Origin: Actinomycetota bacterium
GTDB lineage: Bacteria > Margulisbacteria > Marinamargulisbacteria > GCA-2716485 > GCA-002719695
Direction: 5' to 3'
DNA length: 64,000 bases
Assembly: GCA_002697535.1 (NCBI GenBank)
Contig: NZWE01000008.1
Location: 5,796 to 69,795 of the forward strand
Shown: positions 57,124-60,100 of the stretch, piece after piece
Numbering within the stretch: the stretch's first letter is position 1
Layout of the letters: the number at the start of each line of letters is the position of its first letter
The notes under the pieces: generated by a model
Database searches by the model: none
What the model was told of the DNA's origin: nothing
What the model saw: only the letters and a program-made list of their open reading frames with translations
Position numbers and translations under genes: made by a program

Positions 57124-60100
57124 ATGTTCCATCGACTAACCCCTCCTTCATCACCAACGCCTCCCTCATCACGATCACCAACCCCAACAACAACTCCTCG
57201 AGTATCACGACCAACAAGCCCAAATCCGACTTCTCCACCAGCACAACTACCACCCCCCCTTCCAAATCCATTACCAGATCAGCAATCAACGTCAATAAAC
57301 CATCCTGCTAAACCAACTAAAAAAGCTTTAGAAGAAACACGTGATACTGAGCTGCTCGATATTAATGAAAAAATACAAATCTGTCTTAACTTGATACCTA
57401 ATAGGTGTGAGGAGGATATTTTGTATATCAACAAGCATGGCCTTAGTTACTGCCAATCTAATAAAGATGAACTTGATAAACTTACACCAGAGGACTTATT
57501 ATTTGATTTTCTTTTCCAAAGACGTAACCACATGCTGAAAACACTCTTAACCTATAAGGACTATAAAACCTGCGAAGACCATTTTAATATGGCTATTTTA
57601 AAACTTAAACAGCAGGAATTTGATCATAAAATTTTTAATCAAGAAATATCTACTATTTTTAATATTCATTATGATATTTATAACAAATATAAATCTACTG
57701 CTTATATCCGAAAATTATTCGAGCGATTACTAGAGGCTGTTAACGTACACAAAAATGAATGGGATAGTCTATTTATAACTGTAGAAAAAAAATTTTTTTT
57801 GACAGAGACTCTAAAATTGAATTTTAAAGAGTTTTTTTCTTTAGACTACCTATCTCGGTTTTCTAACGACTCGCCTGATTTCAACCCATTTCCTCCTGAT
57901 TCATCTAAATTTATGCCTCTTAACTTAATCCATGTTTTGTTTTGTTTATCTCTAAATTTACGCCCCCTTCTAGTAGAATCACCAAAGGAAGATACTGCAA
58001 TACCGTTTCGTACAATTATTCCTCGTGCCATTAATCCTGATATAAACTTAGCTCAATATTTGGAGGATGATAAAACATATATTATGGTACAAGCACGTGC
58101 ACGAACAAACCTTGATTCGAAAATAGCTTTTCTCAAAAACCTCAATCAATTTACTGAAGAACTATTACAGCATTTGACTTACAAAGCATTATCAACAGAT
58201 CTCATCGGCACAGCATCTGAACAGTTTCATATAAAAATACTTTCCATCTTCTCTGAACAGATTGAACACTCTTTTTACTCATGGCTATCTTCATTTGCTT
58301 ATGAAGTCTCTAATAACGCTGAATATAGTAAAGATCTTCAACACGTTAAAGCACTTATACCTCACTCATTTAACAGACTTAAAAAGGAATTAGAGATTTT
58401 TGATCTTATGGATTTCTTACGTAACTATCGAGATCATGAAGAAATAATTTCACGCTATACAGAATTGCTAGGATATCCGTTCAAATCTCTAGATAATATT
58501 GAAACTTATCTACATTGCTTAGACGTAGATACTAACTCTAATTTTCAACTTATTATAACCCTTCATGATGTTACGTCCTTCTATTTTGATAAACCTCGAG
58601 GTTCAATAACATTTTTCTTAGATTATATTGTAACATTTATTGATTCTGCTACGACTTTTGAAGTATTTCAGGGTCGCCTTAATCAACTTCAACACCCTAA
58701 GTACAAACTTACACAAGACAATCTAGCTGAATTTCATGGTCTCAAACAAGACTTATTACAACGTATTGATGACACTTCTGATCCTAAGGAAAATAATACT
58801 AAGGAAGCTAAATCTTATATCAAAAGTTTGCAAGAATTTGGCATTTTTACGTTTGAATTAGAAAGCGATGTACAAGAACCCAACTCTAAAACTACCTTTC
58901 TTAAACAACTGACTATATTTTATGAAACCAAAAAAACACTTTTAGAAAAATACAAGAATCATCATGATATCAAATTATGTCAATTTTTAACCCAATCTCT
59001 TGATGACTTGAACAATTTAGATCAAATAATTCAAAATCAAAACGATCTTTTACGAGAAGAAGCAGCAGAATCTTCTAATACACATCAACAGAAGAAAAGA
59101 CCTAAAAAAAAGAATCACTCTAAACCCAAATCCCCCAAAACAGATGTACCTAAATTAACACCACCTTCATCTTTAATATCAGAACGGGACACTATAACGA
59201 CAAATTGGAAAAAAGCTAAAGAACAGTTACAAACAATTGCGAAAAAGAATGATTCCTTATTACAATTAGAATCTTTTGGTAATATTTTTGCTAAGATTCA
59301 ACATTTAAAGAAAGATGATTTAAAATCACAAGGTATTGACCCTCAGGTTCTACAAGAAGAAACAGAAAAAATTAACGCGCTCTCTAATGAATTTGACTTA
59401 GCTATTAATAAACATCTGTATACCGAGTTTTATAACCAGCTAAACCAATTTATTTCATCATTTTCGAGCCCTTACTTTAAGCCGACTGTTATTGTTAACC
59501 AATTACTACTTGATGATACTATTTACAATCCCCCAAAAATGATTTCGGATCTAGCAAAAACCCCTGAATCTCAAAAAGAAATAAAAATATGTATGACCAT
59601 CCTTAATCCTCTTTCTGCTAAAACTAAGATAATACTTCCCTTACTGACCCAGTATTATGAATCTTATACTATGATGAAAGATAGTAAACTCAACTTAGTC
59701 ACAAAAGGCTTTAAGGAATCGGAAATCGACACCTATATTTCACAGTCATTTAATTCTGACTTAACCTCCCCTGATCTCAATCAGGATCTTTTAATTAAAA
59801 ATACGCAACTACTAGGTTCTATTAATTCTCACTTTCAAAAGATTTGTGAGTATTTTGATTCTAATCAAAAAATTTATGCTCAACTTAACAATAACATTAG
59901 TAGGCTTTCAAGCTTAAACTTTGATGGCAAGGCCATTGCTAACACATTGTGTCACTCATTAGACCCTTCACAATCCCTTTCAGATTTAGACCCATCATCA
60001 CTAAATGGGATTGATTTGTTCTTAAATAGCGAACAATTATTAAAAAAAACATCCCTATTAACTCAGCTTAATAGTAAACTTGATAACGACGTTGCGCTTT

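Follow-up and report, generated by a model that had tools for sequence, protein, structure and literature searches.

Several translocated effectors of bacteria contain proline-rich segments and/or nuclear localization signals (NLSs), including Tarp of Chlamydia, RickA and Sca2 of Rickettsia, AnkA of Anaplasma, and the transcription activator-like (TAL) effectors of Xanthomonas. We analyzed an open reading frame (ORF), here designated T1, and its larger downstream paralog T2, both of which lie near the end of a 64,000-nucleotide stretch of contig NZWE01000008.1 (assembly GCA_002697535.1; hereafter the window). An initial annotation of the window had interpreted the short linear motifs of the T1 protein as those of an effector acting inside eukaryotic cells. 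Like the effectors listed above, T1 and T2 are large, lineage-restricted, fast-evolving tandem paralogs, and T1 has a Ser/Thr/Pro-rich, acid-poor N-terminus that is predicted to be disordered, as well as Pro-rich and basic short motifs. Unlike those effectors, T1 is accompanied in the window by no visible cognate secretion system or chaperone and comes from a planktonic, prokaryote-fraction source. It also differs from them in having no eukaryote-like or actin-binding domain, no similarity in sequence or fold, and no motif enrichment beyond composition.

Other known proteins share some traits with T1. Streptococcal M proteins, which are hypervariable, alpha-helical surface proteins with repeats of variable number, possess a Sec signal peptide and an LPXTG anchor, and their coiled-coil heptad register is clear. 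T1 resembles them in being all-alpha, in its diversifying selection, in the in-frame variation of its repeat number, and in its Pro-rich segment, but it has neither a Sec signal peptide nor an LPXTG anchor, and its variation does not cluster at one end. T1 shares its Pro/Thr/Ser composition, disorder, and repeat-length polymorphism with the Pro/Thr-rich (PT) linkers between domains and with the Pro-rich TonB spacer, whereas the T1 segment is located at the extreme N-terminus, follows no signal peptide, and does not lie between recognizable catalytic or binding domains. The core of the Cdc4/Fbw7 phosphodegron is hydrophobic-T-P-P-x-S, as in the LLTPPQS sequence of cyclin E. The hexapeptide LTPPSS fits this core and occurs twice in T1, after basic residues and in predicted disorder, which is taken here as a lead and not as a test. 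The likeness is weakened by the fact that Pro/Ser/Thr-rich sequence should yield such a pattern by chance (approximately 0.3 occurrences were estimated for the rest of T1) and by the disruption of the second copy in L083, the most divergent T1-bearing contig.

T1 and T2 are an orphan gene pair under positive selection

T1 and T2 are under positive selection in wild populations. Six full-length alleles of T1, four of which were added by a metagenome scan, were compared; one allele came from a Tara contig (L001). The ratio of non-synonymous to synonymous substitution rates (dN/dS) was 1.07 to 3.09 in all 15 allele pairs of T1 and 1.25 to 1.59 in three pairs of T2, compared with 0.03 to 0.29 in ten neighbor genes between the window and L001 (flagellar genes, pabB, lepA, pfkB, and others). 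The differences at codon positions 1, 2, and 3 numbered 45, 34, and 37 in T1, and 33, 9, and 173 in eight neighbor genes. The events pooled over the six T1 alleles comprised 221 non-synonymous and 41 synonymous changes; counting sites by the Nei-Gojobori method gave an omega of 1.44 (binomial P=0.016). When the mutation spectrum was taken from the 4-fold sites of the eight neighbor genes, the synonymous share was 15.6% against a neutral expectation of 27.3% (P=6e-6, omega ~2).

T1 is not decaying and is kept open by selection. Approximately 4-5% of the possible substitutions create a stop codon, so that ~11-14 stops were expected in the 262 events, and no internal stop was seen; the frame is open for 1120 to 1236 codons across the six alleles. 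The indels of T1 (ten or more) are all multiples of three and are mostly gains or losses of tandem units, namely PTPPSS at the N-terminus (2-4 copies), DTNSLDL (1-3 copies), an 8-residue unit, and a 21-residue unit; in addition, L083 has a deletion of 76 residues. Along positions 47125-63998 of the window, the synonymous divergence from L001 falls steadily, from 0.20-0.35 in the flagellar genes through 0.07-0.11 in the aminotransferase gene, pabB, and lepA and 0.02-0.04 from pfkB to T1 to 0.006 in T2. A mosaic produced by recombination, or a recent sweep with T1/T2 at its center, may explain this gradient.

T1 and T2 constitute an orphan family without known relatives and are new in that sense; as lineage-specific, fast-evolving, repeat-polymorphic orphan proteins they are of an already familiar kind, and their low-complexity features are ordinary. 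When 1.84 billion representative proteins were searched exhaustively with phmmer, only T1 itself and P0003, a T2-type protein of 1830 residues (E 6e-33), were returned. The word-indexed searches, for which T1 and a profile of T1 and T2 served as queries and which included 5.8 G clusters, returned only T1 itself and an ortholog of 91% identity, and an exhaustive search with a T2 fragment returned nothing even though P0003 was present and T2-type proteins occur as called genes in the assembly collection, which was ascribed to the limit on candidate selection. No relatives of T1 were found among the GTDB species representatives, and the IMG/VR viral contigs contained no relative. T1 matched no Pfam family at E<=0.01, and only noise was obtained for T1 and T2 at E<=1; eukaryote-like domains (ankyrin, leucine-rich repeat, F-box, U-box, Sel1, etc.) gave no significant Pfam match for T1. 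Likewise, there was no significant match of T1 in NCBIfam or among the PDB sequences and no match to the PADLOC defense profiles, and PHROGs gave non-significant matches only (E 0.011 and 0.09), of which no stretch passed alone. The C-terminal (T/I)P repeat of T2 showed a weak, non-significant match to TonB (E 0.17).

Residues 83-1166 of T1 aligned with the C-terminal ~1100 residues of T2 at 27-30% identity (tblastn, E 1e-40), which identifies the two genes as products of a tandem duplication. T2 is 1843-1852 residues in full length as a called gene in related contigs (L001:13853-19384 in the Tara contig). It is distinguished from T1 by an extra N-terminal region of ~700 residues and, in L001, by the (T/I)P repeat near the C-terminus, which is followed by a basic Lys/Arg-rich tail. 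An antisense ORF of 76 codons at 62594-62824 is a shadow of the 78-nt repeat of T2.

The two genes share an upstream element. Over the ~150 nucleotides that precede each gene, the identity is ~85%, as against only 27-30% for the proteins, and the first codons are also similar (MFHRLTPPSS in T1 and MIRSFSPSS in T2). The core of the element, TCTAGATTATTTATTNAAAANCATACATAAT, occurs in the window at 57040 and 60842 only, where 0 occurrences were expected by chance, and in the metagenomes of the Joint Genome Institute (JGI) the element was found solely before alleles of T1 or T2. A wider regulon under the shared promoter was rejected because the metagenome scan found the element nowhere else. The upstream identity points to gene conversion or to a strong constraint on the putative shared promoter, the 5' leader, and the N-terminal decapeptide. 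A scan for promoter and terminator consensus sequences was uninformative (18 sites versus 21 expected), and no sigma-28-like motif was seen by eye. Shine-Dalgarno motifs were found in 15 of 50 genes and are absent at T1 and T2, which is uninformative because these motifs are rare genome-wide.

The AlphaFold2 (AF2) model of full-length T1 had a predicted local distance difference test (pLDDT) score of 33 and was usable for secondary structure only, which was all-alpha with coil at residues 1-70 and 650-687; the confidence peaked near residues ~1080-1170. The C-terminal half alone reached a pLDDT of 54, and its best Foldseek match in PDB (vinculin, E 0.19, TM score 0.15) was discarded as generic helical noise. 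Heuristic checks detected neither a Sec or Tat signal peptide, the N-terminus of T1 being polar and Pro-rich, nor a convincing transmembrane helix; hydropathy (Kyte-Doolittle mean over 19 residues) peaked at 1.66 in residues 266-284 (LNLIHVLFCLSLNLRPLLV), a segment that contains N, H, and R. The secretion-related genes of the window are all flagellar (FliF, FliG-like, rod genes, FlgH/I, FliK-like, FlhB-like, and a sigma-70-family sigma factor). No genes for an injectisome, a type IV secretion system (T4SS), or a type VI secretion system (T6SS) were found in the 64 kb, and no chaperone or secretion genes adjoin T1.

Composition and eukaryote-like motifs of T1

The features quoted in the initial annotation, namely the ORF, its (S/T)P- and PxxP-rich start, the basic cluster KKRPKKKNHSKPKSPK, and the second LTPPSS, were all located as described; the word giant, which it had used for the T1 protein, is overstated for 1188 residues, and it is the downstream T2 that is larger. 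The compositional anomaly of the N-terminus is real. Residues 5-51 read LTPPSSPTPPSSRSPTPTTTPRVSRPTSPNPTSPPAQLPPPLPNPLP, also written LTPPSSPTPPSS...PPLPNPLP, and Pro, Ser, and Thr account for 38 of the first 55 residues (69%; 34.5% P, 16% S, and 14.5% T), whereas the maximum was 27 in shuffles of T1 and 24 in the other ORFs of the window. The first acidic residue of T1 appears at position 52, compared with positions 2-49 in the other 53 ORFs, and the acid-free, Ser/Thr/Pro-rich residues 1-51 resemble a type III N-terminal signal (~25-50 residues) by composition only.

The locally GC-rich patch that had been pointed out in this region was confirmed (51.5% in the first 165 nucleotides, 31% in the rest of the gene and in the window), but it is a by-product of codon content. 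It arises because of the Pro, Ser, Thr, and Arg codons (CCN/TCN/ACN/CGA), and the third positions are as AT-rich as elsewhere, the GC contents at codon positions 1, 2, and 3 of residues 1-55 being 0.60, 0.745, and 0.20. With a third-position GC content (GC3) of 0.24 for the whole gene versus 0.21 in other genes, T1 is a native gene, and a horizontal origin of the patch was rejected on the same values. The GC skew of the coding strand is strongly negative in both T1 and T2 (-0.2 to -0.4), and both proteins are depleted in Gly and Val (1.1% and 2.0% in T1, 0.5% and 1.8% in T2, and 5.0% and 5.3% in the proteome).

The initial annotation had taken the motifs of this segment for sites of proline-directed kinase type and for PPLP/PxxP ligand-like motifs, and hence for hallmarks of an effector. 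Their numbers, however, equal those expected from composition. In 20,000 shuffles of residues 1-55, [ST]P was expected 5.9 times and occurs 8 times (P=0.16), PxxP was expected 6.0 times and occurs 5 times (P=0.81), and PPxP/PxPP was expected 3.3 times and occurs twice. Thus, there is no enrichment of proline-directed kinase sites or SH3/WW ligand arrays beyond the local composition.

In the mid-protein cluster, KKRP and PKKK (pat4) and PKKKNHS (pat7) at residues 657-666 match the PSORT patterns for an NLS and lie in predicted coil, but patterns of this type match 14 of the 55 ORFs of the window, including LepA and PabB, and NLS patterns are non-discriminating in this Lys-rich proteome. With 9 K/R in 16 residues, the cluster is slightly denser than shuffles of T1 would lead one to expect (P=0.013), and LepA, FliF, and the FlhB-like protein contain K/R clusters as dense or denser. 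Its sequence differs between alleles, its basic character is kept, and T2 is also basic at the corresponding alignment position. In the FliK-like hook-length protein (49139-50326, minus strand), the sequence PKNKRKV was found, which is close to the NLS of SV40 (PKKKRKV). Matches to NLS and SH3/kinase patterns thus need a proteome-specific background. That the motifs score at the level of low-complexity sequence is an outcome which the initial annotation had itself listed as refuting its proposal. Since the motifs are no better than chance, with NLS-like strings in a quarter of ordinary proteins, neither an effector function nor the host-associated lifestyle that had been proposed is implied by them.

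Tandem Repeats Finder (TRF) reported a repeat with a period of 18 nucleotides and 1.9 copies at 57138-57172, at the N-terminal hexapeptide repeat. The N-terminal and mid-protein copies of LTPPSS differ at 4 of 18 nucleotides, all four differences being synonymous and none non-synonymous; each copy follows basic residues and lies in a segment predicted to be disordered. The chance that a hexapeptide recurs exactly was estimated from residue frequencies at ~2.5e-4. The mid-protein copy was found in all six alleles, in L083 as LTPPEPSS with a two-residue insertion. An internal duplication of T1 was rejected because blastp between its N- and C-terminal halves gave only the built-in overlap and noise. 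The WH2-like tetrapeptide LKKT at residue ~975 was also dismissed; ~0.13 occurrences were estimated by chance, and it is conserved in neither T2 nor L083.

Source organism, genomic slot, and explanations for the pair

Marinamargulisbacteria are known almost solely from sequence; they may live freely as heterotrophs or, like Ruthmannia, in association with eukaryotes. T1 is identical to CL503_00825, a protein of a metagenome-assembled genome (MAG) that is labelled 'Actinobacteria bacterium' at NCBI, and shares 91% identity with a protein from Tara Oceans. The LepA protein of the window is 95% identical to that of MAG SP317, 79% identical to that of the single-amplified genome (SAG) AG-343-D04 of Candidatus Marinamargulisbacteria, and at most 59% identical to others; the window is therefore assigned to Marinamargulisbacteria, and the taxonomic label at NCBI appears to be mistaken. 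Its source is a pelagic, uncultured marine Marinamargulisbacterium. The gene content of the window (nqrA-F, NDH-2, TonB/ExbBD, iron uptake, lipopolysaccharide (LPS) export, and a flagellar cluster) agrees with the description of oceanic Marinamargulisbacteria as aerobic heterotrophs with Nqr (PMC6349859). As to the source, one contig with a T1 relative (91%) belongs to European Nucleotide Archive (ENA) project PRJEB1787, which covers the Tara 'size fractions for prokaryotes' (PMC11208148); this origin favors a life cycle with a free planktonic stage at the least. On the other hand, Ruthmannia eludens, which lives inside the cells of the placozoan Trichoplax as a symbiont (PMC6784892), belongs to the same clade, so that the bacterium may be either free-living or host-associated.

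The slot of T1 and T2 is flexible and strain-variable. AG-343-D04 keeps the order lepA - pfkB - cytidylyltransferase - metallo-beta-lactamase (MBL) - ... - 3-deoxy-D-arabino-heptulosonate 7-phosphate (DAHP) synthase - 4HBT, and its interval between the MBL-fold gene and the DAHP synthase gene holds a family-9 glycosyltransferase (heptosyltransferase) and a YchJ-like gene in place of T1 and T2. L083 has T1 without T2, with argG, argH, and ndk further downstream; the 2.2 kb that follow T1 there (L083:3848-6061) contain no ORF longer than 163 residues and no similarity to T2, and may represent a degraded gene or an assembly join. No mobile-element or defense genes were found near T1, the flanks being housekeeping genes in the window, L001, and L083.

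Among the possible explanations, we tentatively favor, at somewhat less than an even chance, that T1 and T2, which lack a Sec signal, are exported or exposed and are engaged in an arms race with an outside antagonist. In this reading, they are lineage-restricted, soluble, almost wholly alpha-helical modular proteins, which selection keeps intact while driving amino-acid change. Selection signatures of this kind usually mark an interface with an antagonist; the signature is taken here as a sign of contact with an outside antagonist, and therefore of export or exposure, and a non-classical route is favored because a Sec signal is missing and the N-terminus is rich in Ser/Thr/Pro and free of acidic residues. 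This N-terminus, with its variable number of (L/P)TPPSS units, may function as a disordered leader for export or as a spacer, and the Lys-rich segment may be a flexible charged tether between two helical halves; neither low-complexity segment would be a specific docking array for kinases, SH3 domains, or importin. Candidate antagonists are a eukaryotic host (protist or animal) or grazer, or a phage. Several observations weigh against such an arms race of exported proteins. The non-synonymous changes of T1 are evenly spread and unclustered, which also fits a function that tolerates almost any sequence; the low divergence (dS ~0.02-0.05) inflates dN/dS through segregating polymorphism; and the alleles come from metagenome assemblies and are perhaps population consensus sequences. 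Moreover, the structure prediction of T1 failed (pLDDT 33 and 54) and gave no fold match, and the type III machinery of the window is flagellar only, with no chaperone or secretion gene lying adjacent.

The interpretation of the initial annotation, in which T1 is an effector that acts in eukaryotic cells and the bacterium is host-associated, is improbable. In this view, the basic cluster would be an NLS, and the (S/T)P, PxxP, and LTPPSS motifs would be read by host kinases, SH3/WW domains, or ubiquitin ligases. Its motif argument did not survive: motif counts lie at the compositional expectation, NLS-type patterns are found in 14 of the 55 window ORFs, and the two-residue insertion in L083 splits the mid-protein LTPPSS. 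Furthermore, Pfam revealed no eukaryote-like domain, the 64 kb contain no injectisome, T4SS, or T6SS genes, no homologs were found in the databases searched, and a relative's contig comes from the Tara prokaryote size fraction, while flagella, NQR, TonB, and iron uptake describe a cell of the free-swimming type. What still speaks for an effector is the orphan status and positive selection of T1, its disordered, acid-free, Ser/Thr/Pro-rich N-terminus, the occurrence of LTPPSS in both disordered segments with synonymous differences only, the basic stretch of T2 at the matching linker position, the presence of R. eludens in the same clade (PMC6784892), and two further eukaryote-looking orphan ORFs beside lepA on contig L003 of the sister MAG. 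The orphan status, the positive selection, the acid-free N-terminus, and the kept LTPPSS are compatible with effectors, but equally with other proteins engaged in an arms race. We consider it quite doubtful that planktonic Marinamargulisbacteria deploy a private, diversifying, effector-like pair in which eukaryote-type motifs work, namely a phosphodegron-like basic-LTPPSS element and an NLS-like linker. If this were true, these 'free-living' bacteria of the ocean would be in direct contact with eukaryotic cells as hosts or prey, and the MGCCC... and poly-Pro/basic ORFs beside lepA on L003 would belong to the same repertoire.

An intracellular location of T1 and T2, as scaffold, nucleoid- or membrane-associated, or novel anti-phage or anti-mobile-element proteins, is rather unlikely but a serious rival, and it accounts for several observations, including the absence of a signal peptide and transmembrane segment, the Gly/Val-poor, all-helical protein, the even spread of the substitutions, the strain-variable presence (T1 without T2 in L083), and a variable genomic slot of the kind typical of flexible islands. 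The basic linker would then bind nucleic acid or acidic lipids, and the amino-acid change would result from an arms race with phage proteins or from a very weak constraint on the sequence of long helical bundles. However, a spectrum-corrected omega of ~2 exceeds mere relaxation, PADLOC gave no match and PHROGs only non-significant ones, no nuclease, ATPase, or other enzymatic domain and no defense or mobile-element neighbors were seen, and this reading would explain neither the Pro-rich N-terminus with its lack of acidic residues nor the conserved leader. That T1 is a decaying or spurious ORF whose low complexity results from drift in an AT-rich genome is effectively refuted. A dN/dS that is close to 1 or higher over the full length of T1, the absence of homologs, and the low-confidence structure prediction would suit such an ORF, but the six alleles have remained open for 1120-1236 codons in the face of ~11-14 expected stops, all indels are in frame, T2, at 27% identity, is likewise open for more than 1800 codons, and the promoter is conserved. 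As an intact, positively selected orphan pair, exported T1 and T2 would mark an interface with some antagonist, the identity of which would inform the lifestyle of the phylum. As the eukaryote-like motifs are ordinary low-complexity sequence in a Lys-rich, AT-rich proteome, it is the gene pair that is more valuable.

Coordinates of features and other genes of the window

Table 1. Features of the T1/T2 locus, with coordinates given as positions in the window
Feature	Coordinates	Strand	Remarks
Upstream element of T1 (putative promoter and 5' leader)	57040..57123	+	duplicated before T2
T1	57124-60690	+	orphan ORF, 1188 aa; predicted all-alpha
Pro/Ser/Thr-rich N-terminal segment, aa 1-55	57124..57288	+	predicted disordered; first acidic residue D52
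(L/P)TPPSS tandem hexapeptide repeat	57136..57171	+	2 copies in the window allele; 2-4 in others
Lys-rich basic cluster KKRPKKKNHSKPKSPK, aa 657-672	59092..59139	+	linker joining two helical halves, predicted disordered
Second LTPPSS copy, aa 678-683	59155..59172	+	reads TTAACACCACCTTCATCT; N-terminal copy reads CTAACCCCTCCTTCATCA
QFISSFSSxxFxPTxIxNxLL, aa 775-795	59446..59508	+	one of the two longest invariant runs of the T1/T2 alignment
ELEKLFKxVKTQYFSQAST...QSC, aa 1062-1086	60307..60381	+	longest invariant run of T1/T2
Upstream element copy before T2	60842..60926	+	region of ~85% identity
T2	60927..64000	+	larger paralog downstream of T1; open frame continues past the window end
78-nt (26-aa) tandem repeat in T2	62626..62820	+	TRF: 2.5 copies, 88% matches

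Rfam and tRNA scans of the window returned nothing. Four proteins of the window had no Pfam family at E<=1e-4, encoded at 5822-8146 (plus strand, 774 residues), 28330-30288 (plus strand, 652 residues), 35209-37761 (plus strand, 850 residues), and 15804-16979 (minus strand, 391 residues). The N-termini of the 652-, 850-, and 391-residue proteins are hydrophobic and resemble signal peptides; the 850-residue protein, whose gene comes after those of LptF/G and a tetratricopeptide repeat (TPR) protein, may be an envelope component.

The two ORFs next to lepA on contig L003 of MAG SP317 have no Pfam or NCBIfam match and no signal peptide, their N-termini look eukaryotic, and they are unrelated to T1 and T2 by BLAST. 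One of them (L003:410-2695, plus strand, 761 residues) carries KRSTSPPPPPPKKTK...NAPPVPPRT, with a poly-Pro and a basic stretch. The other (L003:2872-4617, plus strand, 581 residues) starts with MGCCCQSGKKTIKK (MGCCCQSGKK...), which resembles a membrane-targeting motif of N-myristoylation/palmitoylation and polybasic type.

The lipase maturation factor family is best known from eukaryotes. A 495-residue protein encoded at 11219-12706 (plus strand) of the window strongly matched the LMF1 and LMF1_C domains of this factor with E values of 4e-60 and 1e-40, respectively.

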